In this document: piece after piece, positions 5,691 to 52,042 of the stretch
Layout: every line of letters begins with the position of its first letter
Position numbering within the stretch: the first letter of the stretch is position 1
Assembly: GCA_963744715.1 (NCBI GenBank)
Contig: CAVUUR010000011.1
Coordinates: forward strand, 1 to 64,000
DNA length: 64,000 nt
DNA from: an uncultured bacterium
Lineage (GTDB): Bacteria; Babelota; Babeliae; Babelales; JACPOV01
Direction of reading: 5' to 3'
Program-made: the position numbers and the translations under genes
Notes under the pieces: model-generated
What the model saw: only the letters and a program-made list of their open reading frames with translations
What the model was told of the DNA's origin: nothing
Database searches by the model: none

Positions 5691-6389
5691 ATGTATATTG
5701 TCGAAGGTAATATTGGTGCAGGAAAATCTACTTTTTTAAACTTAGTTGGTAAACATCTGCCTCATATAAAAATCGCGTTAGAGCCTGTGAATAATTGGCA
5801 AAAAAATGTATATGGGCAATCATTACTGGCCAATTTTTACGAAAATCCTGAGCGATGGTCATATACTTTAGAAACATTTGCTATGATTTGTCGTGTTCGA
5901 GAACATTTGCAAGATCAAATGGATCCTTCAGTTAATCGTTTGATCGAGCGATCAATTTATTCCGGGCATTATTGCTTTGTGTTAACCGGATACCAAAATG
6001 GATTTATGAATGATATTGAATGGACATTGTATAACGATTGGTTCAATGCTCTTATTCCACAAAAATGTTTACCGCCTCGTGGTTTTATCTATTTACGGAC
6101 GACGCCAGATATTGCTTATCAACGAATAAAAAAACGTAACAGGCTTGCTGAGAAAAATATTACCTTTGCGTATTTAAAACAGATTCATAATTACCATGAA
6201 AAATTTTTGTGTACGCATGAAGGAATTTTACCCGAGCTAAAAAATGTTCCGGTACTTATTCTTGATGCAAACCAAGAATTTCAACATGATTCGCAGCGAT
6301 TGCAAGAACATTTAGAGCAATTGACTAATTTTATTGCACAAACATCAATAGAATCCCAACGTGCTATTAGTAACATGAATTTGATCTGA
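5691..6389 (+). CDS. Deoxynucleoside kinase
   Basis: VEGNIGAGKST P-loop, EPV, ERSIYS, RIKKRNR lid. Confidence 0.93.
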   Translation: MYIVEGNIGAGKSTFLNLVGKHLPHIKIALEPVNNWQKNVYGQSLLANFYENPERWSYTLETFAMICRVREHLQDQMDPSVNRLIERSIYSGHYCFVLTGYQNGFMNDIEWTLYNDWFNALIPQKCLPPRGFIYLRTTPDIAYQRIKKRNRLAEKNITFAYLKQIHNYHEKFLCTHEGILPELKNVPVLILDANQEFQHDSQRLQEHLEQLTNFIAQTSIESQRAISNMNLI

Positions 6390-6469
6390 AGCAACGTGAA
6401 CTTTTTTTGCTTCCTCGCCATAAAAATTTATGATTTTTATGGACGAATAGTAAATCCAAGACCAATGCT

Positions 6470-6854
6470 TTAGATTGCTTTGCAAGCAAACGTGAAATTT
6501 TTGCCATCATAGGTAATAAGAACTTCTTGTGGTTTTGGATTTTGCATGGAAATCCTTTCCCATTCATCAAGAAGTTTAACAAACTCTGGTTGTTCGATAG
6601 GAAAGTAAGGACCACCATCTAGTTCTTCAGAATCTTGATCACTCACTATGATATAATTATCTTTTTTCTCAAGATGTGTTATATTGCCTCCGTAACTACT
6701 TAAATCATTTTTATCGACAGCCCATTCTTTAAACAGTGAACGTCGGCAACCAATATCGGATAAAAAACATGCAAGTATGGCCATTTCTTGGATCTGCATC
6801 TTTGTAACTGTAAAAGCCATCTTCCATAACAATTTTTAAATAATTTTTTTTCAT
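6470..6854 (-). CDS. Second immunity protein of the EndoU toxin locus (one frameshift near 6791)
   Basis: Paralog of 7082..7465; N-terminus MKKNYLKIVMEDGFYSYKDAD from ATG 6854 lies in another frame and aligns with MNNYAKIALRDIDYYLCSDSD. Confidence 0.75.
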
Positions 6855-6864
6855 CACATTATCC

Positions 6865-7080
6865 TTATTCTAATACCGGGTAAGCGGTTGTTATCTGGCC
6901 TTTTTTAGTAATATACATTTCTATTTTTATACCTTCATCCGTAAATCCTGTCACCAAATATTTGCCGCTAGGTTTCAACTCATAATTTTTTGCACCAGTT
7001 TTAATGAAATGGTCATAGGCTTCTAGGATTTTACTAATTACCTTTTCTCGCGGCCAGAGTTGAGGGAACAAAGTTTTATG
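6865..7080 (-). pseudogene. Orphan EndoU toxin C-terminal cassette with no start codon
   Basis: KTLFPQLWPREKVISKILEAYDHFIKTGAKNYEL...TTAYPVLE is near-identical to the C-terminus of the toxin at 7507..9525. Confidence 0.85.
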
Positions 7081-7081
7081 A

Positions 7082-7465
7082 TTATTTGCAAGCAAACGTG
7101 AAATTTTTTCCATCATAGGTAATGAGAATTTCTTGCGGTTTTGGATTTTGTTTGCAAATGCTTTCCCATTCATCAAGAAGCTTAACAAATTCTCGTTGTT
7201 CGATAGAAAAATACGGACCACCATCGGGTTCTTCAGAAACTTGATCACTAAGAATGACATAGCCATCTTTTTTTTCAAGGAAGGTTATATTGCCTCCACA
7301 CTTAGTACATCCGGAATCAAAAAGAGCCCATCCTCGATACCATAAGCGATTGCAACCAACGTCAGAGGCTAAAAAACGACCTAAGATATACATTTCTACG
7401 GTGTCTGAATCGCTACATAAATAATAGTCGATATCCCTTAGCGCTATTTTAGCGTAATTGTTCAT
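7082..7465 (-). CDS. Putative immunity protein for the EndoU toxin
   Basis: Small acidic ORF immediately downstream of the toxin with GAGG RBS; duplicated after the orphan cassette. Confidence 0.8.
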   Translation of the reverse strand: MNNYAKIALRDIDYYLCSDSDTVEMYILGRFLASDVGCNRLWYRGWALFDSGCTKCGGNITFLEKKDGYVILSDQVSEEPDGGPYFSIEQREFVKLLDEWESICKQNPKPQEILITYDGKNFTFACK

Positions 7466-7506
7466 AATTTCCTCATTTATATTAACACTGGATAAGCTGA
7501 CGTCAT

Positions 7507-9525
7507 TCAGCCATTTTTGGTAATATACATTTGAATTTTTACGCCTTCATCAATAAATCCCGTTACAGTATAGGTACCATTACGATTTAACTCATAATTT
7601 TTTGCACCAGTTTTAATGAAATGATCGTAGGCTTCAAGAATTTTACTAATAACTTTTTCTCGTGACCAATGTTGAGGAAAAAAAGTTTTATCCCACGAAA
7701 TACCATTAATAATTACTTTCGCACGATAAAACCCATTACTATCTACCATCTTGTCGACGAATTGAATAAGTCCACTTTTTTCAATACGTCCCCAAAGATC
7801 ATGATGAAACCCGAACCACTTGAGTATGTCTTTTGCAGGTGCAAACCAATCAATACCTAAAATATGATTATAGGGAATTTTAATATATTTAGTAGCAAAT
7901 TCGCCAAATCCTTTACGTGCATTATCAAACATTTTTTTTAACTGAGGCAGTTCTTGTTTCACCTCTTCCAGTATGGCTGTGAGTTCTGTAACCAGATCTT
8001 GCCCTGCCGGTACAATAGTAACTAATGATTCAACGGCTTTTTCTTCTCGAACAATGTTGTGTATTACATTTTCTACGGCAACACATTCTTCTTGTAATGC
8101 AGCTGGTGTAATAATTTCAGTTGTTTGGAGTGCAACAGCAACGTGAACTTCTTGTGCGGTGAGAGCCCTAGTGCCTTGTTTTATTTTTTCAACGTAGGAG
8201 GGAATTTTCTGATACGCAGCCGTAAAAATTTTATTCAAACAATGGGCTGTCGCGGGCAACAGAACGGTTTGTGTAACCAAACGCGAACCCTGTTTGAGCG
8301 CATCATACGGATTATTAACACAATACAACTGTAATGCCTGTGCGGTTCGGCCCACTTCTTGGATGAGGGTTAATGCTTGTTTTCTATAATTCTCTTGTAG
8401 AATCGAAATGAGCGGTTGATGTTGTTTAATGAAACGAACTAAACAATGTGCAGTATTGTTTATGCTTTGTGCAAATGCCAGAGGAGGACTTTTGTAATTA
8501 TTAAGGGTAGGTTGTGTCGATGCTATTATTCCTAATAATTCTTCAGAATTATTAATAGAATAGTGTCGAAAAGAATTTCCCAAGTTAACTAATTCACCTG
8601 CAGCAAGTAATGGTTCATGGCCTGGTAGTACTACAACAGAAAATAATGCTGGATATTTTTTAATAGCATGCATTAATCCGTAAGTAGTATTTTTTGCACT
8701 GGTTACTAATTCAATCACAGCACCTTGTGGATTAGTAATTGCGTTGCTTATTGCAGTTTTAGTAGCATTGATTTCTTCCAAAATACCTTCGCCGATGGCG
8801 AGCGCAGTCGATCGCATAAAAGACCAACACACATCAAGGAGGTTAAGTGCATCGGTAACCATGCCGGCATAATTATGTTGTCTGCTCAGTTCAACGAACG
8901 GCATAAGTATATGCCCAGTTTGTTTTGCTACGCTTGTGCCCACAATACTATCAATAACCTGCAAGCATTCCGTATGAATAATATGTTGTAACGTTGATCC
9001 TCGCAATGTTTGGTATGCATTGACTGGAAGATTATGTTCACATAATAATTGTTGTATCGGTGCGGATAAGGCAAAAACTTTTGTACTGATTTCATACGTA
9101 GCATGATTATTAGTATGCACTATTAAACTATTCAATCGCTGCTTGATTACATGAGGGGGTACGCTATCATAGTTAGATGTATGAGCAAGTGCAAGCAGCT
9201 TAGGATATTCTTGCTCTAACCGATTGCGCAGTTCTTTATCATAATTCCGATCTTTTTTATACGGATCTTTTAATTCTTTTTCTCCCTTCCACCATTCGTA
9301 TGCACAGCATACTAAAAAAGCTAGAACAGCTGCGGGCTCTGCTATTTTTTTAAGAGCTTGTAAAAGAACATTGCCATTATTTTTTTGATTGTGCGTAGAA
9401 GTATGTGCCGTTATTTGTGGAACATCATTATTATTATACTTCGGTATATAATCGGTACTGGAATACGCAAAAGATCTGAATGGTGTAAAAAGTATCACGC
9501 ATACAAAAAAAAATTTCTTCATCAC
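7507..9525 (-). CDS. Signal-peptide polymorphic toxin with C-terminal bacterial EndoU ribonuclease domain
   Basis: NHILG, GFHHD, NGFYRAKV, KTFFPQHWSREKV motifs (His-His-Lys triad); reading through TGA 7507 adds MTSAYPVLI to 7477. Confidence 0.85.
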   Translation of the reverse strand: MMKKFFFVCVILFTPFRSFAYSSTDYIPKYNNNDVPQITAHTSTHNQKNNGNVLLQALKKIAEPAAVLAFLVCCAYEWWKGEKELKDPYKKDRNYDKELRNRLEQEYPKLLALAHTSNYDSVPPHVIKQRLNSLIVHTNNHATYEISTKVFALSAPIQQLLCEHNLPVNAYQTLRGSTLQHIIHTECLQVIDSIVGTSVAKQTGHILMPFVELSRQHNYAGMVTDALNLLDVCWSFMRSTALAIGEGILEEINATKTAISNAITNPQGAVIELVTSAKNTTYGLMHAIKKYPALFSVVVLPGHEPLLAAGELVNLGNSFRHYSINNSEELLGIIASTQPTLNNYKSPPLAFAQSINNTAHCLVRFIKQHQPLISILQENYRKQALTLIQEVGRTAQALQLYCVNNPYDALKQGSRLVTQTVLLPATAHCLNKIFTAAYQKIPSYVEKIKQGTRALTAQEVHVAVALQTTEIITPAALQEECVAVENVIHNIVREEKAVESLVTIVPAGQDLVTELTAILEEVKQELPQLKKMFDNARKGFGEFATKYIKIPYNHILGIDWFAPAKDILKWFGFHHDLWGRIEKSGLIQFVDKMVDSNGFYRAKVIINGISWDKTFFPQHWSREKVISKILEAYDHFIKTGAKNYELNRNGTYTVTGFIDEGVKIQMYITKNG

Positions 9526-9675
9526 TACTCACTCTCTTTTTTTACTAAACATTGTGCTTCATTTTATTTTTTTAAAACGTAGCATAATAAGAGAGTAAAT
9601 CAAGGGAAGGTTAGTCGCGTAGAGCCTTTTTCGAATTCACTTATATCAGATCATTGTACCGGTAATGAAAACGTT

Positions 9676-23847: not shown

Positions 23848-24095
23848 TTCTGATCCAAGAATATTATGTTAATGGTGTTATCTAATAGTCTATAATTGCT
23901 AATGTAATAAAGAGTTTTTGACAGCGAACTTAATCCTCTCGGCATAAGAATGCATTTTTGATGTTAAACTATGTTGAGATTCTCGCGTGATACGTTGATT
24001 GCATAGTTGTTTTTTGACTTGTGAAAGACAATCAACTAGTATTGATGCTAGCGTGTAGTAGTAAGATTTAATTGGCTATGGTAGAAAGACTTTTT

Positions 24096-24632
24096 ATGAA
24101 AAAAACGGAGACATTTGTAGAAGCATTAGCAACTATTCTGCATAAACAAAATGTAATTAGTACTGATGAAGCGCAGGCAATTAAAAAAGTTTTTTATGAA
24201 CGATCACAAGAAGCGTTTGATGATTTTTTATTGAGTGAGGGATTATTAACCCGTCCAGTTTTATTGAATGCATTAAGCGAATATTATCATGTTCCAGCAT
24301 TCGATGTTGAAGGTTATTTTTTTGACCACCATTTATTACGTGAATTTCCAAAAGATTTTTTGTTGCGCAATGAAATAATTCCGTTAGAACGTGATGAAAA
24401 TACATTAATTATGATTGCCAGCCATCCCAATGATGACGATTTGTTGCCAGAAATAGGTAAAATTGTTTCCTATGACATTGAATATATGGTTGGTATTTCG
24501 CAAGATATTACCGATGCGGTTGAAGAATTTTATGATAAATCACCGAGTGAAGTATCCGAAGATGATGATTTGGATCGTGAGCATGAAGAAGCTGAACAAG
24601 CAGAAGAGTTAATTGAAGAAAAAGAAGATTGA
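24096..24632 (+). CDS. Stand-alone GspE/PilB N-terminal domain protein
   Basis: Degenerate MshEN-like helices, ALSEYYHVP, IIPL, ASHPND; acidic tail; directly upstream of the ATPase. Confidence 0.75.
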   Translation: MKKTETFVEALATILHKQNVISTDEAQAIKKVFYERSQEAFDDFLLSEGLLTRPVLLNALSEYYHVPAFDVEGYFFDHHLLREFPKDFLLRNEIIPLERDENTLIMIASHPNDDDLLPEIGKIVSYDIEYMVGISQDITDAVEEFYDKSPSEVSEDDDLDREHEEAEQAEELIEEKED

Positions 24633-24639
24633 GTTTGGT

Positions 24640-25809
24640 ATGGCAGAACTTGAACACGAATTATCGGTCATAGAACTCGTTGACACTATTATTGCTAAAG
24701 CTATAACCTGTAACGCTTCCGATATACATTTAGAGCCAACACCGTATGAATTGCGATTGCGCTATCGCATCGATGGAGTTTTATATGAACAAAAACCGAT
24801 TATTGTAGCTCTTTTGCCGCAAGTTATATCCCGTATAAAAATTATTGCACAATGTGATATTGCAGAAAAAAGAGTTCCGCAAGATGGCAAACTTGTTGTT
24901 ACCATGGGCAGCAAAAATATTGATTTGCGTGTTTCTACCTTTCCTACCATCTATGGACAAAAAATTGTTATTCGTATTTTGGATCGTTCTCACACCATGA
25001 TGTCCCTTGATCATCTGGGATTATCAGCAACCTTATACAATACCTGTAAACAATTGTTGCGCAAACAACAAGGATTTTTTTTGGTTACCGGGCCAACGGG
25101 ATCCGGAAAAACAACAACCTTATACGCAGCGCTTTGTTTAATTAATACTCCTGAAAAAAATATTATCACGCTGGAAGATCCGGTAGAATATAATGTAACC
25201 GGTATTACGCAAGGGCAAATTCATGCCGATGCTGGATTTACGTTTGCTCGCGGTGTGCGTGCGATGTTACGGCAAGATCCTGATGTGATTATGATTGGTG
25301 AAATTCGTGATAAAGAAACGGCAGGCATTGCCATTGAATCGGCATTGACCGGACATTTAGTATTAAGCACCTTGCATACTAATAACGCCCCGGGAGCGAT
25401 CATGCGGCTTATGGATATGGGTATTGAACCATTTTTATTAAATGCTGCCATTACTGGCGTTATTGCGCAGCGCCTCGTGCGTAAAATTTGCCAGCATTGC
25501 CGTATTGAAGATCTGCCAACCGCATTGGAACAAGAATTTTTAGAACAAATTGATTTGCCGCTCGCCCGTATTATACGCAATAAAGGATGCGAGCATTGTT
25601 TTAATCTTGGGTATAAAGGTAGAATTGGTATTTTTGAACTGATTGTTATGAGTAGTGAGTTGCGAGCACTTATTGTGCAACAACCGATCTTTGATGATAT
25701 TTATGCACAAGCACTTGATGATGGCATGCATACGTTGCTTGATGATGCTAAAGAAAAAGTTATCAGCGGTATTATTTCGCTGGAAGAACTCATGCGTGTT
25801 TTGGTATAA
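24640..25809 (+). CDS. GspE/PilB family secretion/pilus ATPase
   Basis: ASDIHLEP, PQDG, GPTGSGKTTTLY, LEDPVE, RQDPDVIMIGEIRD, TGHLVLSTLH, CxxC...CxxC. Confidence 0.95.
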   Translation: MAELEHELSVIELVDTIIAKAITCNASDIHLEPTPYELRLRYRIDGVLYEQKPIIVALLPQVISRIKIIAQCDIAEKRVPQDGKLVVTMGSKNIDLRVSTFPTIYGQKIVIRILDRSHTMMSLDHLGLSATLYNTCKQLLRKQQGFFLVTGPTGSGKTTTLYAALCLINTPEKNIITLEDPVEYNVTGITQGQIHADAGFTFARGVRAMLRQDPDVIMIGEIRDKETAGIAIESALTGHLVLSTLHTNNAPGAIMRLMDMGIEPFLLNAAITGVIAQRLVRKICQHCRIEDLPTALEQEFLEQIDLPLARIIRNKGCEHCFNLGYKGRIGIFELIVMSSELRALIVQQPIFDDIYAQALDDGMHTLLDDAKEKVISGIISLEELMRVLV

Positions 25810-27017: not shown

Positions 27018-27200
27018 CCACTGTTTCATTTTAGTTTTTCTTGTTCTTTTGTCAAACTTATGCGATTATCATAATAGCATTGTCATTGATATAGCAATAA
27101 AAAACATCGTTATTTTGCTAGAAATTATGTAATAATACCTAATGGGAAAATATTTAAAAGTTTTTTTGAGGATGTATGATTATGAATATGATACTAGTGA
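27018..27200 (+). repeat. Duplicated upstream/5' region, copy 1 (copy 2 at ~28560-28746; partial copy at ~29940-30035)
   Basis: Shared TTTAGTTTTTCTTGTTCTTTTGTCAAA...TGTCATTGAT...TTATTTTGCTA...AGGATGTATGAT(T/C)ATGAATATG. Confidence 0.85.
27028..27055 (-). promoter_or_regulatory. Sigma70-like promoter
   Basis: TTGACA-N16-TAAAAT upstream of the gene starting at 26968. Confidence 0.5.
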
Positions 27201-28336
27201 TAGTGGCAACTATAATGTGCATGAGTGATGTGTATAGTATGGAACAAGGATATCTACCTACAGAAAAACATATAACAAAGCGAGATTATGCTGAAGCCCA
27301 AACTACTGATAGGCAAAAAAAACATAAGAATGTGAAAAAGAATACTAATTCGCTCCATTATAAAGTGGCCTGTGATCATGCAGATTGTGATGAAGTTATG
27401 TATGCAAGGAAAGCGTCCAGTAATAGCCTAAAAGCGTTAGAAGGTTTATATGGATTATTTCGTGTGCATAACCGTGAAGATCATGATTTAGCCATTGAAG
27501 ATAATAAAAAAGAGTATGTATATCAAAGCCACTGGACAGTTTCTGAGGAGCAAATTAAAGAAAAGTATGCGTATATGCAATGTGAAGGTTGCTCCGAAAT
27601 ATTTTGTTGTCTTGATTCGTGTAATGTGGACAATAAAAAAGAAAATAATTTAATAATGAGATTTAAAACACATCTTAATACATGTAAAAACAAGAATACT
27701 AATCAGCAAGAGAAATTACGCAATCAAAGCAAGGGTGAGGCATTCAAGGACATAATACCGATAAACAATATAAAAAACGAAGTGCCTACATTTGAATCAA
27801 CGTGTTCTGCTGACAATTGTGATTTTTCTTTTGATTCAATTGAGTCTGAACATGTAGAAAACATAATGAAAAAACATATACGGTTCGCGCATGGCAATAT
27901 TATAGAAAAGCCAGTAATTACAGAGGCTAGAAAAAAAATAGCCGAATTAGTAGATAAGATGTGTCTAGTAATGTGCATAGAGCCACGATGCAATTTTATA
28001 ATGAATTCAGAAAAAAATGATACAAACAACCTGCGCAGGTTGTTTTATCAACATATAAAGGCAGAGCACTTTTTTGTCGGATTAGATGGTATTGATACGT
28101 ATATTAGAACAAGAATAGTAAGAAAACCTTATGAACAATATGAGAAGGATATAAAAAATATACAGAGTTCTGCGTTACAGTGCGAAAAATGTCGTCTGGC
28201 GATTACAAAACCAAGTAATGTGCACAAAGAACTATTTGACAAAAAACACATATTTTTACATAAGAAAAAAAATCAACTTGTTGGCGATGATCTAGCCATT
28301 ATTGCTGCAGAAGTCTTGGGTTGCCAATTTGAATGA
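27176..28336 (+). CDS. Exported multi-zinc-finger protein, paralog 1
   Basis: Signal peptide, basic patch RQKKHKNVKK, five Cx2-4C...Hx3-4(H/C) motifs. Confidence 0.75.
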   Translation: MIMNMILVIVATIMCMSDVYSMEQGYLPTEKHITKRDYAEAQTTDRQKKHKNVKKNTNSLHYKVACDHADCDEVMYARKASSNSLKALEGLYGLFRVHNREDHDLAIEDNKKEYVYQSHWTVSEEQIKEKYAYMQCEGCSEIFCCLDSCNVDNKKENNLIMRFKTHLNTCKNKNTNQQEKLRNQSKGEAFKDIIPINNIKNEVPTFESTCSADNCDFSFDSIESEHVENIMKKHIRFAHGNIIEKPVITEARKKIAELVDKMCLVMCIEPRCNFIMNSEKNDTNNLRRLFYQHIKAEHFFVGLDGIDTYIRTRIVRKPYEQYEKDIKNIQSSALQCEKCRLAITKPSNVHKELFDKKHIFLHKKKNQLVGDDLAIIAAEVLGCQFE

Positions 28337-28721
28337 GCCTAAGCTGGGCAAACATAGTTTGTGCGTACCGCCACAGAAATTGTTTTAGCGCTTGTCTTAA
28401 AATTAATCAATTTTTGCATAACAACGTGGAATGCAATCTAATTTCCGTAATCATTTAGGACGTTTTCAAGAAAAATGATTAGATCAATCGAAAGAATTAA
28501 TGAATATAGGTAACCCATTACTAACGTTTGAATCGGGGTGCACCATTTGTGATTCTTGTCGTACTGTTTCCATTTAGTTTTTCTTGTTCTTTTGTCAAAT
28601 GTTACACTGGGCCTGCGGTAAAATTGTCATTGATCTATTGCTAAAAAAATGTTGTTATTTTGCTAAAAATTATATAATAATGCGTAATGCGAAAAAATAT
28701 TTAGAATTTTTTTAAGGATGT

Positions 28722-29882
28722 ATGATCATGAATATGCTGATAGTGCTGGTGGCAAGTATATTGTGCATGAGCGATATGTATGGTATGGAGCAAGGATATT
28801 TACCCACAGAAAAACGTACAATGAAGCGAGATCAAACTACTGATAAGTCAAAAAAACATAAAAAAGAAGAAGTAGCTGTGGCGATTAGTTATAGTGAGCC
28901 GTGCTATCATAAAGTTCTCTGTGATCAGAAAAATTGTGATCACGTTGTATTTTCACACAAAAAATCAAATAATAAGGAAAAAGGATTAAAAGGTTTATCT
29001 AAATTATTTAATAAGCATATTAAGAGTATTCACCACTTGCCCACGGCAGATGATAAAGAAAAGTATATAAACCAAACCCACTGGACGGTTTCTGGGCAGG
29101 AAATTAAAGAAAAGTATATGTATCTGCAATGTCAAGGTTGCTTCTCAGTATTCTGTTGTATCGATTCTTATAATATGAGTAATAAAAAACAAGGTGAGTT
29201 AATGAATAGATTTAAAACACATCTTAGTAATTGCGAAAATAAGGATACAGATCAGCAGAATAAATTATCAAAGAGAGGCAGATATGATGGATTGGGAGAT
29301 GTAATAACGCTAAACAATATAGAAAATGCGGTAAATGCATTTCAATCAAAGTGTACTGCTGCTGATTGTGGTTTTTCCTTTGATTCAATTGAGCGTGAGC
29401 ATGTAGAAAATATGATGGAAAAACATATACAGTTCGATCATAAAGGCGGTATTGAAATGCCTATTATCAAGGATGTGAAAAAAAAATTAATAGAATTATC
29501 AGATAAGGTACTTCTATTAATGTGTATGGTGCCGAAATGCAATAATATAACGATAGCAGGGAAAAATAATACGAAACAACTTCAGAATTTATTTGAAAGA
29601 CATATTAAAGACGATCACGTTGCCATATCGGCTGATATTACAAGTTATATTAGAACAAATACCGTAAAAAAAACTTATGGACAATATGAAATAGATCTTG
29701 CAGAAAAACTGAATTCCCCATTACAATGCCAAATATGTCAAGTGGGGCTTAAAGGGGAAACCAATAAAGTGCATAAAGAAATATTTGAAAAGAAGCATGC
29801 ATTTCTACATACTAGCGGGGATAAGACTCCTCTTGATGATCTTGTTACAGCCATCACACTTGCCGGATTGAGTGGGCTCTAA
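28722..29882 (+). CDS. Exported multi-zinc-finger protein, paralog 2
   Basis: Same length and Cys/His pattern as paralog 1; KSKKHKK patch. Confidence 0.75.
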   Translation: MIMNMLIVLVASILCMSDMYGMEQGYLPTEKRTMKRDQTTDKSKKHKKEEVAVAISYSEPCYHKVLCDQKNCDHVVFSHKKSNNKEKGLKGLSKLFNKHIKSIHHLPTADDKEKYINQTHWTVSGQEIKEKYMYLQCQGCFSVFCCIDSYNMSNKKQGELMNRFKTHLSNCENKDTDQQNKLSKRGRYDGLGDVITLNNIENAVNAFQSKCTAADCGFSFDSIEREHVENMMEKHIQFDHKGGIEMPIIKDVKKKLIELSDKVLLLMCMVPKCNNITIAGKNNTKQLQNLFERHIKDDHVAISADITSYIRTNTVKKTYGQYEIDLAEKLNSPLQCQICQVGLKGETNKVHKEIFEKKHAFLHTSGDKTPLDDLVTAITLAGLSGL

Positions 29883-29999
29883 TTTATATAGTACTTTTGC
29901 TCTTTGGTAAATGGTACTCCTTACTTGTGATAGTTAGTGTTTATTATTTTGAAAATTATTATACAATGTTCCACGTATAATAATTTTTTTTAAGGATGA

Positions 30000-31064
30000 A
30001 TGACTATGAACAGGATGATAGTGATAGTGGCAAGCATATGGTGCATGAACAATGTGTATGGTATGGAACAAGAAGAATATGTTCTTACAAAAAAGCGTAA
30101 AATAGATAGAGTACCTGCAACAATTAATAATGATCAGAAACCATATTATTATAAAGTTCTCTGCCCTCAGGAAGATTGTAATGAAGTTGTATCCGTAAAA
30201 AAAACGCAGAAAGAATTAAACGTGTTAAGAATGTCATTAGATAAGCACTTTGTATTGAGTCATGCGTTAAATAATGAGCAAATAAAGCAAAAAGGAGATT
30301 ATGTAGGTGATAATCACTGGGTTGTAACGAGAGAACAGATTAAAAAAAGCTATATACATGCGGAGTGTAAACACTGTGATAAATTATTTTGTTCTGATAA
30401 TAATTTCAATAACAATCGCGATATAAAAGATTTTTTTACCAGGCATTTAAAGACGTGTACTAAAAAAAAACGAGCGGTTGATCAAGAAGTAACATTAATT
30501 AATAAAAATAAGCAGGTAAAGACATATGGATTAGCTTGTACAGCTGCTCATTGTATTTTTTCCTGTCGATCAGTCGATCTTGAATATATAAAAAGGATAA
30601 TGATAAAACATAGTCAGATTAAACATAAAGAGAGCGATTTTAAAATGGGAGATATTAAAGAGGAACTTGAAAATATAGACACCTTATACGGTAAAACTTT
30701 TCTTATAATGTGTCTCGAACCATTATGTAGTACAATAATATATGATAAAAGCCATAAAAAATCGTTACGAGAATCTTTTGTGAGGCATTTAAAATTTAAG
30801 CATAAGATTAAATCTGTAAAAGTGATTAATAACGAGATTTTGAACTATTGTAATAATGTTATGATTGAAAAACCTCTCAGCTATAATGCAGATGAAAAAA
30901 AAATAAAGTCTTTAACGTGTATTGCTTGTAAGGAATCTACTAAAGCAGATTGCGAAGCATTTTTAAGTAAACATAATTATTTACATCATAGAAAAGATGA
31001 GATTTGTGTTATTGATAATTTTTTAATACGAACTGCAGTTGCTTCCATGCGTGAAATTATTTAA
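30000..31064 (+). CDS. Exported multi-zinc-finger protein, paralog 3
   Basis: Conserved Cys/His pattern; KKRKI and KKKR patches. Confidence 0.75.
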   Translation: MTMNRMIVIVASIWCMNNVYGMEQEEYVLTKKRKIDRVPATINNDQKPYYYKVLCPQEDCNEVVSVKKTQKELNVLRMSLDKHFVLSHALNNEQIKQKGDYVGDNHWVVTREQIKKSYIHAECKHCDKLFCSDNNFNNNRDIKDFFTRHLKTCTKKKRAVDQEVTLINKNKQVKTYGLACTAAHCIFSCRSVDLEYIKRIMIKHSQIKHKESDFKMGDIKEELENIDTLYGKTFLIMCLEPLCSTIIYDKSHKKSLRESFVRHLKFKHKIKSVKVINNEILNYCNNVMIEKPLSYNADEKKIKSLTCIACKESTKADCEAFLSKHNYLHHRKDEICVIDNFLIRTAVASMREII

Positions 31065-31902: not shown

Positions 31903-33274
31903 TCAGTAAAAACAATGACGATGTTCCCTACTATTTCAAAAGCGATAAAGGTCTTAACCGTGCAACGGTTATTCAGATTTCTGAGCAAAAAAATGAGCCG
32001 GGCTGGATGACTGAATTTCGTTTGAATGCCTTAGAAATTTTTGAGAAAAAACCAATGCCTTCATGGGGTGCTGATTTATCAGGGCTCGACCCTCATGATA
32101 TTCATTATTACGTCAAGCCCTATTGAACATTCGCAAAAATCATGGGATGCGGTGCCACTGAGACTATTAAACAAACCTTTGAGCAATTAGGAATTCCACA
32201 AGCTGAGCAAAGTATGCTTGCTGGCGTTGGCGCGCAATATGAATCGGAAATGATTTATAAACAGCTTAAACAAGAATGGTCTGATAAAGGTGTTATTTTT
32301 TCCGATATGAGTGATGCATTAGTTACTAATCCCGAACTGGTGAAAAAATATTTTTCTACCATTATTCCTGCGCATGATAATAAATTTGCAGCACTTAATT
32401 CTGCGGTGTGGAGTGGGGGAAGTTTTGTATATGTTCCTCATGGCGTGCATATTGATATGCCGTTGCAAGCATATTTTAGAATTAATATGATGAGCATGGG
32501 GCAGTTTGAGCGAACATTAATTATTGCAGAGCCGGGAAGCTTTGTGCATTACGTGGAAGGATGCAGTGCTCCGGTGTATCGTAATAATTCATTGCATAGC
32601 GCCGTTGTGGAAATTAGTTGCTCATGAAAGATCTCATGTCAGGTATACTACGATTCAGAATTGGTCAAATAATGTTTATAATTTAGTTACCAAACGTGCG
32701 GTTGCATACAGAAACGCCAAAGTTGAATGGGTTGATGGTAATTTTGGTAGTAAAGTTACGATGAAATATCCGTGCTATCATTTTAAAAGAACCGGGTGCA
32801 AAGGGCGAAATTATTTCTATAGCTGTTGCCGGCAATGGCCAACATCAAGATGCGGGAGGAAAAATTATTCATCTAGCCCCTAATACTACTTCGACTATTA
32901 TTTCAAAATCGATCAGTAAAGATGGTGGAAGAACAAGTTATCGTGGATTATTAAAATTAATAAAAGGAGCACACGGTTCATCATTCTCGTGTGCAGTGCG
33001 AAGCATTAATTCTTGATGAACATTCTCGTTCTGATACCTATCCAACGGTTGACGTAAATAGAGCATGATGTTGATGTTGGCCACGAAGCATCGGTGAGTA
33101 CTATTAATGATGAGCAACTTTATTATTTAATGAGTCGGGGCTTTTCCGCAGCACAGGCGCAAGCAATGATTGTTAATGGGTTTATTGATTCTTTTGTGCA
33201 AGTAACTTCCGATGGAATATGCGGTTGAAATTAATCGGCTTATTGCTCATGAAATGGAAGGCTCTATCGGATGA
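31899..33274 (+). CDS. sufB: Fe-S cluster assembly protein SufB, interrupted by about seven frameshifts
   Basis: [69 protein letters not shown] recovered across frames. Confidence 0.93.
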
Positions 33275-45990: not shown

Positions 45991-47709
45991 ATGAAGGTAT
46001 ATAGTTTACTATTGATGACCATGTATTCGTATGTAGCATTAGGCATGGAGAATCCTTATGAAAAAGAATTCGGCACTATAACTACGTATGCCAACTGCGG
46101 AGAAGATGCAGAATTCGCTATAACATATAAAGATATGGTTTTATTACGAGAATCAAAAACTATTGCAGAAATAGTTGATAGTGTAAACGATTTTGGTATC
46201 GATAAACCAAATATTGTCCTTCCTATAGTTTCAGCACAGGAATATCAAAATACGTTTATTCCTTATTTGAGAAAAATACATAATGTCGGCGATGATAATC
46301 AAAAAAAAATCGATCTTAAATTGGAGCTCGTTGAAACTGACTATTCATTGTTATTAAAAATTGCCGGCTATGCGCATTATTTTGATATTTCAGATTTAGA
46401 ACGCTATGCAGTATGTGCACTATCAAAAAAATTAACTAATGAGAAAGGTATGTCTTTATTTTTTAATAATAAAGCTCATTGCCAACAGATATCCAATATC
46501 GTTCCACATCTTAGCCAGAGTTTAGTTTCGCATATAGTTGAGGATGAGCAAGCAGTATTACAAGATTTGTTTTTTCAACCATCTTTTAACTCAATTTTAC
46601 AAAAAACCTTAGAAAATAAAAGAGAAACGTTTGACCTAGTTTTTGGGCCAGATGATTCTTTAGCATGTATGCCACCCGAAAAAACTAGATCTTGTCTTAC
46701 AAAAAGTTTCTTCGTGTGGGAAGGTCAATATACTAATCCGCAAGCAATACAGTCAAATGAAAGACACGGTGTGGAAATTTCATTTTTGTCGAGCATTGCG
46801 CCCATTGCTAGTAGAAATGGTATAATATTGTTAAATGAAAAATTTAAACCATCAAAAATATTTTATTTGTCCAATTTTTGTACGATGTATAGAAATGCGG
46901 AAAGTAATAAAACGCATTTTTTAAAAGATAATTCTAAGGCTGCCATGAACTCCTTAGCAATAAGTCCTTCGAAAGAACTTATTGCTAGTTCAAATGTAAA
47001 TAAGGAAATTTTTGTATGGCGTTATGATGGAACATTAGTTCGATCATGGTTAAAAGATACCGATTCATTTGAAGGGGGTAGATTATCTTTAGCATTTCAT
47101 CCGTATGAACATTTATTAGCAACGGGACGTTGTCAATTGCGTTTATTAGATATTGATGACGGCACTTGGCGAACGGGTGATAAAAGTATACACGGTATTA
47201 GCGGGTTACTTTTTAGTCCTGATGGAAAAATGCTGGTTGCTAGTAGTTCAAATAAAATCTATGTAAATAAGGTTAAGACGTTGCAGAAAAAACGCGAATT
47301 AACCGATGTCAAGCCCCCTATCTGCATAGCATTTAGTAATGATTCATCATTATTGGCTAGTGGTAATTACAATACAATAAAGCTTTGGAACCCAAAAAAA
47401 GGTTACTGTATAAAAACTATTACCTTTACAACTAATATTTCTACATCTGCCCTTGCCTTTAATGCGAATGATACGTTGTTAGCAGCAGGATTTTCTGACA
47501 GCCACAAAATACATGTGTATACCTTAGATAAATTCAAAAAATTTTTAGATGAATCTCGGCGTTTGACGTTGCCACAAATTCTCTTACTGTTAGGCTCGAA
47601 AAAAGCAGGTTCCTCTTTTGATCCGAACGATGAGAAATATGCACACTTCAAAGATTGCTATACCAGTTTAAATCGCATCCGGCGGTTCTTAGGGAAAAAA
47701 AGTAATTAA
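45991..47709 (+). CDS. Exported WD40-repeat protein with a Skp1/BTB-like N-terminal domain
   Basis: Signal ends ALG-MEN; SKTIAEIV...IVLPIVS...AHYFDISDL Skp1-like pattern; WD repeats (FSPDGKMLVAS, LASGNYNTIKLWN). Confidence 0.8.
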   Translation: MKVYSLLLMTMYSYVALGMENPYEKEFGTITTYANCGEDAEFAITYKDMVLLRESKTIAEIVDSVNDFGIDKPNIVLPIVSAQEYQNTFIPYLRKIHNVGDDNQKKIDLKLELVETDYSLLLKIAGYAHYFDISDLERYAVCALSKKLTNEKGMSLFFNNKAHCQQISNIVPHLSQSLVSHIVEDEQAVLQDLFFQPSFNSILQKTLENKRETFDLVFGPDDSLACMPPEKTRSCLTKSFFVWEGQYTNPQAIQSNERHGVEISFLSSIAPIASRNGIILLNEKFKPSKIFYLSNFCTMYRNAESNKTHFLKDNSKAAMNSLAISPSKELIASSNVNKEIFVWRYDGTLVRSWLKDTDSFEGGRLSLAFHPYEHLLATGRCQLRLLDIDDGTWRTGDKSIHGISGLLFSPDGKMLVASSSNKIYVNKVKTLQKKRELTDVKPPICIAFSNDSSLLASGNYNTIKLWNPKKGYCIKTITFTTNISTSALAFNANDTLLAAGFSDSHKIHVYTLDKFKKFLDESRRLTLPQILLLLGSKKAGSSFDPNDEKYAHFKDCYTSLNRIRRFLGKKSN

Positions 47710-50146: not shown

Positions 50147-52042
50147 ATGCAAAAGCTGCAACAATATATAAAAAAAAGCATTGCATTAGGTCCACAAAAA
50201 ACAGTAAAAGTTATCCATAACAAAATTGCAACCCGTGTAACAGGTTGGTATTGGCGTAACCGTGCTTTACAAAAAAAAGCACATTGTTCTTGGGTGTGGT
50301 TGCAAAAAAAATATGCTCTTCCGGATATCTATTCTTTTTGTGCGCTGTTACGTCAACAGCCTATACCTCCTTTTTCATCAACGTTTTTTAAAACTCATGG
50401 TGATGATGCCGCATTAATAGAGCAAGCAGAATCATTAAAAAATTCTTGTTTTGAGCTGTTAGGTTCTGGAAAACAATGTTTTACCGAGATACCATGGCAT
50501 ACTGACTTTCGCCTTTCTCAGGGCATTAATGCACACTTTAATCCTGAATTATATTATAAAGAGTATATAATTACGCCGGGGTTAACCGAAGAATGTGTTA
50601 AGGATATTAAAATTCCATGGGAATTATCGAGATTTAATCATTTTTTTGTTCTAGGCAATGCTTTTCGAATAACTAATAATCCGGATTACGCACAAACATT
50701 TATGAAGCATAGTACTGATTGGATGGAAAAAAACCAATTTTTATTAGGGCCCAATTGGGTATGTCCGATGGATGTGGCAATCCGTGCACTTAATTGGATA
50801 TGGGGATTTTATTTTTTTAAAGATAGCTTAGAGGTTCCATCAGAATTTTGGCAGCCGTATATTTGTATGCTCTATGATCATATGATTTATTTGGAAAACA
50901 ATTGGGAAATTTATGATTCGCGCACTTCAAATCATTATCTTTCAGATTTGATTGGTTATTTTTATCTTTGTTATTTTTTTCAGAACCTTGCGGGCATGCA
51001 AAAAAAAGCATGGTGGTGTTATCAAGAGTTATTAAAAGAGTTTTATCATCAAATTTTTGCAGAAGGGACGAGTTATGAAGGTTCAACGGCCTATCATGGT
51101 TTGGTAACAGAAATTTTCTATCATTTTTCTATTCTTTGTACGGCATTTAATTATCCGCTTGATGAAGATTTTATGAATCGATTTAAAAGAATGATAGTGT
51201 TCATTAATGCGTGCACTACGCAACAAGGAATGCTGATTTGCATCGGGGATAATGATTCGGGAAAGATTTGTTATCCGGGCATTAAGCCAATGCTTGAGGA
51301 TAAATCTGTTAATAAAGAAATGATGCATTATTATGCCGAATTTGGGCTTTCAATTATTAAAACATCAATGTTTCATGTTACACTGCGCCATCATGCATAT
51401 ACTGAGAGGCAACCATCAGGACATTTTCATAGTGATATTGGTAGTGTTACGCTGGCCATTGATGGCATTGATGTTTTGGTTGATCCGGGTAGTTATGTGT
51501 ATACGCCTTCCGCCGTGTGGCGTAATCGATTCCGTTCAGTCACGATGCACAATACTTTTTTTCTTACCGATTGCCAACCGGTGCCATTAGATAATAATCT
51601 TTTTACCATGGCCTTACCGGCAGCAAAACCTGTAGCTTTCAATAGGGTATATGACGATAGGTATTATGCACAGGCAGAACATCGGTTGTATGAAAAAAGT
51701 CATGGCCTTATAGCATCGCGTGCTGTTGAGTGCAGTCAAAAAGAAAAAAAAGTCATAGTATCGGATTGGTGGCAATCAACAAGGCGTAATCAATGGATGA
51801 ATACGGTTCCAACATCATGGAACTTTATGCTAGGGCAATTGATTGAGCCGATTTATGATAATGGAAACATACTATTATTATACAATCAAAAGCCATTAGC
51901 CTTAATTGAATCAAGGTACGCTTTAAAAATTTGTGATAGTTTTGTTTCGTATTCCTACGGGACTAAAGTTGCCTGCAAAAAATTACACGCAAATCAATTA
52001 GCAGAAAAAGAAGTATATAGCAGTACCTTTACCGTATTATAA
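50147..52042 (+). CDS. Heparinase II/III family (alginate lyase-like) protein
   Basis: DIKIPWELSR, SNHYLSD, EGSTAYH, GDNDSG, GHFHSD, LVDPGSYVY. Confidence 0.88.
   Translation: MQKLQQYIKKSIALGPQKTVKVIHNKIATRVTGWYWRNRALQKKAHCSWVWLQKKYALPDIYSFCALLRQQPIPPFSSTFFKTHGDDAALIEQAESLKNSCFELLGSGKQCFTEIPWHTDFRLSQGINAHFNPELYYKEYIITPGLTEECVKDIKIPWELSRFNHFFVLGNAFRITNNPDYAQTFMKHSTDWMEKNQFLLGPNWVCPMDVAIRALNWIWGFYFFKDSLEVPSEFWQPYICMLYDHMIYLENNWEIYDSRTSNHYLSDLIGYFYLCYFFQNLAGMQKKAWWCYQELLKEFYHQIFAEGTSYEGSTAYHGLVTEIFYHFSILCTAFNYPLDEDFMNRFKRMIVFINACTTQQGMLICIGDNDSGKICYPGIKPMLEDKSVNKEMMHYYAEFGLSIIKTSMFHVTLRHHAYTERQPSGHFHSDIGSVTLAIDGIDVLVDPGSYVYTPSAVWRNRFRSVTMHNTFFLTDCQPVPLDNNLFTMALPAAKPVAFNRVYDDRYYAQAEHRLYEKSHGLIASRAVECSQKEKKVIVSDWWQSTRRNQWMNTVPTSWNFMLGQLIEPIYDNGNILLLYNQKPLALIESRYALKICDSFVSYSYGTKVACKKLHANQLAEKEVYSSTFTVL

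Follow-up and report, generated by a model that had tools for sequence, protein, structure and literature searches.

The first 64,000 nucleotides (nt) of contig CAVUUR010000011.1 from an uncultured Babelota bacterium (assembly GCA_963744715.1), referred to here as the window, contain a cassette made up of a gene for a predicted exported EndoU toxin, two predicted immunity genes and a fragment of a second toxin tip. On genomic grounds, from which the labels "toxin" and "immunity" are also derived, this cassette belongs to a polymorphic toxin family in which a constant trunk carries interchangeable C-terminal tips, the downstream gene co-varies with the tip, and orphan cassettes occur. Within the intracellular phylum Babelota, such cassettes probably serve to kill non-immune bacteria, mainly other Babelota, in a shared protist host.

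The Babelota (Dependentiae, TM6) live strictly inside the cells of protists (PMC12172432), which bears out the preliminary description of the window, where the source organism was called a probable intracellular parasite. They appear in the literature as reduced parasites that direct their secreted proteins at the host, and one paper files EndoU under host digestion (PMC6561590). Our findings suggest that about four in ten Babelota genomes also carry antibacterial weapons, often several, and this frequency implies competition for host cells. A profile of the core domain that unites the family matches in 107 of 261 Babelota/Dependentiae genomes and in 79 of the 189 high-quality ones, covering 72 of 145 genera and 15 of 21 families; single genomes have between 0 and 13 matches. 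When 185,579 species genomes were scanned with the family pattern, 10 loci emerged, five labelled Dependentiae or Babeliales and one "uncultured Pseudomonadota"; the named loci nest among genomes of the window's order on the trunk tree. As this pattern scan is insensitive, the restriction of the family to Babelota is weakly tested. Word-index protein searches, also insensitive, returned 3 and then 11 matches, and 23 relatives of the immunity protein, almost all unnamed.

Variation of tips and downstream genes

The central observation is the exchange of tips on a common trunk. The 105 fetched regions yielded 80 toxins and, in a stricter set, 79 full-length proteins; open-ended, short and three frameshifted open reading frames (ORFs) had been excluded ahead of these counts. 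The preliminary description had proposed a search for homologues with different C-terminal tips, and such homologues exist in abundance: 20 unrelated tip clusters sit on one core domain, a count that is the same in the stricter set. The Pfam cut-off for a toxin family is passed by 34 of 75 tips, with 19 EndoU, 8 Ntox17 and 4 Ntox21 domains and one each of colicin D, Cytotoxic and Ntox35, EndoU being over-counted because the first loci were chosen by tip similarity. By cluster, six are named above the cut-off, three weakly, and eleven have no Pfam name; the repertoire includes colicin E3-type tips, with a barnase-type tip among the representatives. NCBIfam gave no name for any of 42 tips and immunity proteins.

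Unrelated tips were found in 12 of the 24 pairs of toxins with trunk segments at least 80% identical. A tandem of four toxin genes (L041:3586-13789) further illustrates this: the trunks are near-identical, the tips are of three types, and the downstream genes match the tips. In a quickly built trunk tree, members group by genome and the tip labels require 43 changes, where 19 is the minimum and shuffled labels average 53.2; tip swaps in these sequences are therefore read as frequent but not random.

The downstream gene begins -45 to +28 nt from the toxin stop codon in 75 of 79 cases, and its sequence clusters follow the tip type, as for the Ntox17 tips, all eight of which share one downstream cluster; at the window's own locus the automatic pick of the downstream gene was wrong. 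Eight of 72 downstream proteins pass a Pfam cut-off, two each for CdiI_N, CdiI_ImmP, DUF2247 and DUF6980, and the latter two are presumed from their position to be immunity proteins. The partner family of the EndoU tips resembles DUF5376 by Atlas language-model features (0.91-0.93, 211-219 shared features), the PF17346 model itself not being matched; no paper on DUF5376 was found in the literature searched. Since 11 of the 20 tip clusters, like the majority of downstream proteins, lack a Pfam name, the former are candidate new nucleases.

The same mosaic structure is visible within the window's own genome (1.26 Mb, 86% complete; the window lies on the contig numbered C11), where the core-domain profile matches six places. 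The whole cassette together with about 80 nt of upstream sequence recurs on contigs C7 and C9 at 81-84% nucleotide identity, in unlike neighbourhoods and with full-length tips. The three EndoU toxins differ at synonymous sites by 0.02-0.30 in the trunk and by 0.55-0.57 in the tip, and the closest pair switches along the gene, as would be expected if recombination had taken place at the linker. Two further whole members of this genome (L103 and L104) are sisters on the tree and carry unrelated tips, one of them followed by a DUF2247 gene. A sixth member, which carries an EndoU tip and is broken by frameshifts into three pieces, lies at the start of C7 (C7:3-1558).

Immunity genes are in surplus. 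Nine of the EndoU type face three whole and one broken EndoU toxins, and one of them (C7:83587-83949) lies directly behind a DUF2247 gene with no tip beside it. In this genome, half-tip cassettes that are variants of the same tip family are present at all three loci, one of them 123 amino acids long on C7; others lie in L106, L111 and L114. The quick turnover of tips, together with the excess of immunity genes, speaks for attack by and on other bacteria, and kin competition is the most likely role that can be deduced from these sequences.

The presence of the whole cassette at three unrelated places and the patchy copy number (0 to 13 per genome) would also fit selfish modules similar to toxin-antitoxin or host-addiction systems, which spread by copying within the chromosome and do not serve as weapons; for the polymorphic toxins of a Bodo symbiont, a role in addiction has been proposed (PMC8163844). 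An exported trunk of 500 amino acids would be needless for intracellular addiction, yet the trunk is under purifying selection (nonsynonymous divergence of 0.03-0.09 versus synonymous divergence of 0.18-0.30 in the core and helical regions of the own copies). The order of toxin before immunity gene also speaks against such modules, as does the lack of any family member in the viral contigs, plasmids and phages searched, and we regard this explanation as very improbable.

The trunk and its core domain

A search with residues 21-540 of the window's toxin against 1.84 billion proteins returned 71 representatives including the query, nearly all of which match through residues ~90-290; removal of P0018, a chitin-binding false positive, left 70 members. 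The family motif is G-N-x-L-Q-x3-H-x-E ... N-x2-G ... D-x-C-W, with R130, G176, Q180, H184, E186, N218, D231, C233 and W234 as conserved core positions. The polar cluster among them may serve in binding, metal coordination or self-cleavage. AlphaFold models the full-length protein confidently at residues ~90-245 and ~510-672 and weakly between them, while the isolated core domain reaches a predicted local distance difference test score of 91.5 and a predicted template modelling score of 0.86 and folds into a bundle of helices plus a two-strand element.

No Pfam or NCBIfam family is matched in the core domain by more than one of the 70 members, and Foldseek found no match for it in the PDB (best E 0.71). 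The best structural comparison (Z 6.2, root mean square deviation 3.4, 108 aligned residues) led to generic helical bundles only, which falls short of evidence for a new fold. The full toxin model gave nothing at E<=0.001, with eukaryotic EndoU chains only at ranks 23 and 26, and sequence searches of the PDB with the core domain, the tip and the immunity protein gave nothing meaningful. A possible assignment of the trunk to PT-TG by Atlas features (score 0.86, 85 shared features) was too weak and was not used. The absence of a known delivery domain from the N-terminal region, as first claimed, thus agrees with the family searches over 70 members and with the sequence and fold searches of the PDB. 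The same text had described about 480 residues of helical sequence without RHS, filamentous haemagglutinin, LXG or PAAR features. None of these families is matched there, but the stretch is not featureless, as residues ~88-253 are conserved and confidently modelled.

Some members deviate from the common layout. Two core-domain copies are present in members of 1300-1390 amino acids (L095:4853-9019 and L118:3533-7456), and a PT-HINT domain lies near the N-terminus of L066:2253-4871, L068:2025-4595 and P0051, upstream of the core instead of immediately preceding the tip.

A second Babelota trunk class (L105-L113 and L121-L150) of 800-1060 amino acids has no core-domain match (profile-profile probability 0.7%) and has a distal helical segment and the tip pool in common with the first. 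It is present in 15 of 261 genomes, the window's genome not being one of them. In all ten EndoU members of this class that were examined, a homologous AAA-ATPase gene lies directly upstream, most of these with a signal-like N-terminus; a dedicated AAA-ATPase partner was ruled out for the window's trunk class (5 of 69).

Taken further, the trunk may be a self-contained delivery device for intracellular interbacterial warfare throughout the phylum that does without contact-dependent injection, with the core domain and its invariant Q-H-E-N-C cluster as a new recognition or self-cleaving module by which a protein released through Sec/T2SS would enter another bacterium. At least two trunk classes would share a pool of some 20 nuclease-type tips, of which roughly half are undescribed. 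This extended proposal is tentative, and we hold it to be rather less probable than its opposite.

The cassette in the window

The cassette is flanked by genes for a deoxynucleoside kinase and an FkbM methyltransferase (features in the table below). The preliminary description gave the order toxin, immunity 1, orphan tail, immunity 2, and the ORF calls on the minus strand reproduce it.

Features of the EndoU cassette in the window, with the basis of each assignment
Feature	Position	Strand	Basis or remark
Polymorphic toxin gene, 672 aa	7507..9525	-	ORF; stop 10 codons earlier than in two paralogues
Predicted Sec signal peptide, aa ~1-20	9466..9525	-	Assigned by hydropathy heuristic alone; lipobox absent
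Conserved unnamed helical core domain, aa ~88-253	8767..9264	-	Alignment and structure model
Helical middle region, aa ~254-460, Gly-rich amphipathic helices	8146..8766	-	Low-confidence model; distal part common to second Babelota trunk class
Variable linker, aa ~461-530, putative recombination zone	7936..8145	-	Divergence between three paralogues jumps here
EndoU nuclease tip, without terminal strand	7510..7935	-	Pfam match; H554, H574, K613 at conserved positions
Remnant in-frame codons past stop	7477..7506	-	Homologous to terminal strand of paralogues
Predicted immunity protein 1 (127 aa), N-terminus not signal-like, resembling DUF5376 by language-model features only	7082..7465	-	ORF
Half-tip cassette: last ~70 aa of an EndoU variant, catalytic histidines absent	6865..7079	-	Homology
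Predicted immunity protein 2, paralogue of immunity 1	6470..6854	-	Frameshift near 6790 in assembly
Whole cassette and ~80 nt upstream	6479..9608	-	Two further genomic copies (contigs C7, C9)

The C-terminal EndoU domain noted earlier is confirmed by a match to EndoU_bacteria (PF14436) at residues 593-670 (E 3.6e-8; 34.3 bits against a cut-off of 25.3), with two conserved histidines and K613, which we take to be the catalytic lysine. The domain is incomplete in this copy, the match stopping at profile position 119 of 129. The gene ends at a TGA (7507-7509), 10 codons short of both paralogues, and thereby lacks the terminal strand that is kept in the other 34 of 35 aligned tips. This early stop arises by substitution rather than by an insertion or deletion (indel); recoding of TGA was ruled out as intact neighbours use it as a stop, for example the kinase gene at 6389. 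Because of the early stop, the sequence of the window's toxin indicates a copy that is likely crippled, with two full-length paralogues persisting in the genome, and it is likely the weakest of the three EndoU copies.

The second half of the cassette originates from a duplication. Positions 6460-7079 are a duplicate of about 610 nt of 7066-7691 (one repeat of 232 nt with 84% identity and one of 215 nt with 79%), comprising the 3' end of the toxin gene and immunity 1, which gave rise to the half-tip and immunity 2; the two immunity proteins are 69% identical over 104 amino acids. The description of the fragment as an orphan toxin tail holds as far as its EndoU homology is concerned (E 1.7e-9, above the cut-off), but only the last ~70 amino acids of a tip are there and both conserved histidines are absent. 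The 137-amino-acid ORF called at this place overlaps immunity 1 in a different frame, with true homology confined to 6865-7079.

Immunity 2 is frameshifted near 6790, with the homologous start near 6854. On the same contig, the gene for a SpoU-family rRNA methylase is split over three ORFs (210-1018), an MshEN domain is separated from its type II secretion system (T2SS)/pilus ATPase (24072-25809), and a short SufB-type ORF is present (32142-32627). Such split housekeeping genes suggest indel errors in the assembly, and since the SpoU methylase gene is broken too, the frameshift of immunity 2 may be an assembly error.

For this locus only, it seems somewhat likelier than the opposite that the copy is decaying or disarmed and is retained as a reservoir of immunity, which is compatible with a family of antibacterial toxins. 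The early stop points in this direction, being a substitution that deletes a strand kept by nearly all other tips, as do the frameshift in immunity 2 and an internal stop in the half-tip on C7. Against this stand the broken housekeeping genes, which make indel errors likely in the same assembly, and the reads of the single DNA run with a small share of the sequence, which span 9203-9439 only and reach neither the stop nor the frameshift; no RNA run was listed. A promoter scan gave fewer sites than in shuffled sequence and none upstream of the toxin gene.

Elsewhere in the window, three consecutive ORFs of 386, 386 and 354 amino acids (27176-31064) had no Pfam match at E<=1e-6 and are possible lineage-specific paralogues, while a heparinase II/III-like protein (50147-52042) and a WD40-repeat protein (45991-47709) are candidate host-interaction factors.

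Export, targets and comparison with known systems

From the observed architecture, tip variation, tip-immunity co-variation and mosaic divergence, we infer the following mechanism. The signal peptide would direct the toxin to export by Sec, and type II secretion machinery or outer-membrane vesicles would release it across the outer membrane. The core domain would then act as a recognition or anchoring module, with the helical middle region aiding entry, and the tip would be cut off near a T-x-E-G motif to cleave RNA in the cytoplasm of the victim. In the producer, the small cytoplasmic proteins would bind and block their cognate tips, with spare immunity genes guarding against the variants of relatives. 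The named tips fall in families that act on bacterial tRNA, 16S rRNA or RNA generally, colicin D cutting tRNA-Arg and E3-type domains cutting 16S rRNA (PMC9990079).

The signal peptide reported at the outset is also predicted by a hydropathy heuristic (N-terminal 12-residue hydropathy 2.6), and a lipobox-like motif is present in one of 79 members. The hydrophobic segment AAVLAFLVCCAYEWW, also reported then, is present in the toxin but is no family trait, as a comparable segment occurs in 6 of 63 members. The genome encodes two secretins, two T2SS/pilus ATPases and two Omp85 proteins; the secretin genes lie close together (C3:2225-7484), as in TM6 genomes (PMC4776705). No match was found in this 86% complete genome to VipB, VirB4, FHIPEP or TolC, the markers of type VI (T6SS), type IV and type III secretion systems and of TolC, and TpsB (PF03865) gave no match either, in a search whose positive controls were equally blank. 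As other secretion markers were not found, Sec followed by T2SS or vesicles is the likely export route by elimination. T2SS is common to TM6 genomes (PMC4776705) and the only secretion system reported for Babela (PMC4378268), and Chromulinavorax sheds vesicles in the food vacuole (PMC6561590). A precedent exists in MafB, a signal-peptide EndoU toxin that is secreted and neutralised by the product of its downstream gene (PMC4287609).

Several observations count against this account of antibacterial toxins. Toxicity, binding, expression and secretion are all predictions from genomics. The signal-peptide heuristic picks out a hydrophobic N-terminus in 65 of 79 members, but it does so for 221 of 435 long ORFs in the window's genome as well, and the upstream genes are not conserved (65 genes in 58 clusters). 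At 86% completeness, the absence of other secretion systems from the genome is not proven. Tips cluster on the trunk tree more than in shuffles (43 changes against a mean of 53.2). The middle region is mildly hydrophobic (7 of 79 members reach 1.6 over 19 residues) and a T-x-E-G-like motif is patchy (44 of 79, degenerate in the window's protein), which makes the entry and cleavage steps weak; entry into the target is the weakest step of the mechanism. In Neisseria, MafB secretion is independent of the secretin, and the MafB EndoU domain also cut human RNA in vitro (PMC4287609).

The target could instead be the protist, with secreted nucleases degrading its cytosolic or mitochondrial RNA and the small genes preventing self-poisoning before export. 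Such a shutdown, combined with a supply of nucleotides, would suit the Babelota as lytic, nutrient-dependent parasites, and mitochondrial ribosomes are of the bacterial type. However, every Pfam-named tip is a nuclease-type domain also found in interbacterial systems, none of the 70 full-length relatives has a ubiquitin-system, GTPase or ankyrin module, and tip replacement with surplus or orphan immunity genes is sensible mainly if foreign toxins reach the cytoplasm of the producer. A host-directed role therefore appears unlikely to us, even with endoU listed among the enzymes for host biopolymer breakdown and a mitochondrion wrapped around the replication bodies (PMC6561590), with the T2SS as the only system reported for Babela (PMC4378268), and with a signal peptide and lineage-specific domain being typical of the host-directed effectors of Amoebophilus (PMC3482391).

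In the literature searched, no earlier report of polymorphic or toxin-immunity systems in Dependentiae/TM6/Babelota was found, most subscription papers and the supplements of PMC3482391 and PMC6561590 lying outside its scope. The word "toxin" is absent from the main text of PMC4776705, PMC6561590 and PMC12172432, and a term search of PMC4378268 with its nine supplements led only to HicAB and MNT-HEPN and to no EndoU. Single family members are already named at NCBI by their tip or HINT domain.

Polymorphic toxins exported by Sec and T2SS with lineage-specific domains (MAFB-N, Microscilla-N, APD1/2) have been defined before, with more expected (PMC3482391). The distinct delivery class proposed in the preliminary description can thus be upheld as a variant of this architecture rather than as a new principle; the Babelota family adds to the Sec/T2SS polymorphic toxins a new variant that has a MafB-like architecture and is spread on the scale of a phylum. 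How signal-peptide toxins such as MafB enter their targets is a question for which the compact, phylum-conserved core domain offers a new handle.

The MafB/MafI system of Neisseria has in common with the Babelota family the signal peptide, a lineage-restricted N-terminal domain, variable nuclease tips and a downstream immunity gene (PMC4287609; PMC3482391). EndoU, Ntox17, Ntox21 and Ntox35 tips are all listed with MafB-N (PMC3482391). Both systems also have silent cassettes and an occasional HINT domain, which in the Babelota members lies upstream of the core domain, unlike in MafB. In further contrast, neither the 70 full-length relatives nor the 70 core domains match DUF1020/MAFB-N, a conserved MafA-like upstream gene is missing, and the core domain lies 50-540 amino acids inside the protein instead of directly after the signal peptide. 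The Babelota family also ranges over a phylum of obligately intracellular bacteria, while MafB ranges over a genus.

APD1/APD2 of Amoebophilus and Microscilla-N likewise combine a constant lineage-specific domain with variable C-termini, APD in an amoeba-associated bacterium (PMC3482391). APD, compared here by its description, has a lipobox and host-directed ubiquitin, GTPase and lipase modules (PMC3482391), whereas the Babelota toxins have a lipobox-like motif in one of 79 cases, nucleases as named tips and a cognate downstream gene each. Toxin-immunity-orphan arrays are also known from the protist endosymbiont Ca. Bodocaedibacter, which by description differs in its phylum, in the presence of a T6SS and in having three mutually unrelated loci (PMC8163844). 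CdiA/CdiI, Rhs and LXG systems draw on the same pool of tips and immunity proteins (EndoU, colicin D, E3-type, CdiI_N, CdiI_ImmP) and show the same C-terminal displacement. The Babelota members differ from them in having no match to two-partner secretion (TPS), haemagglutinin, RHS, PAAR, LXG or VENN features, in the lack of a T6SS marker in the 86% complete genome, and in their size of mostly 500-900 amino acids.

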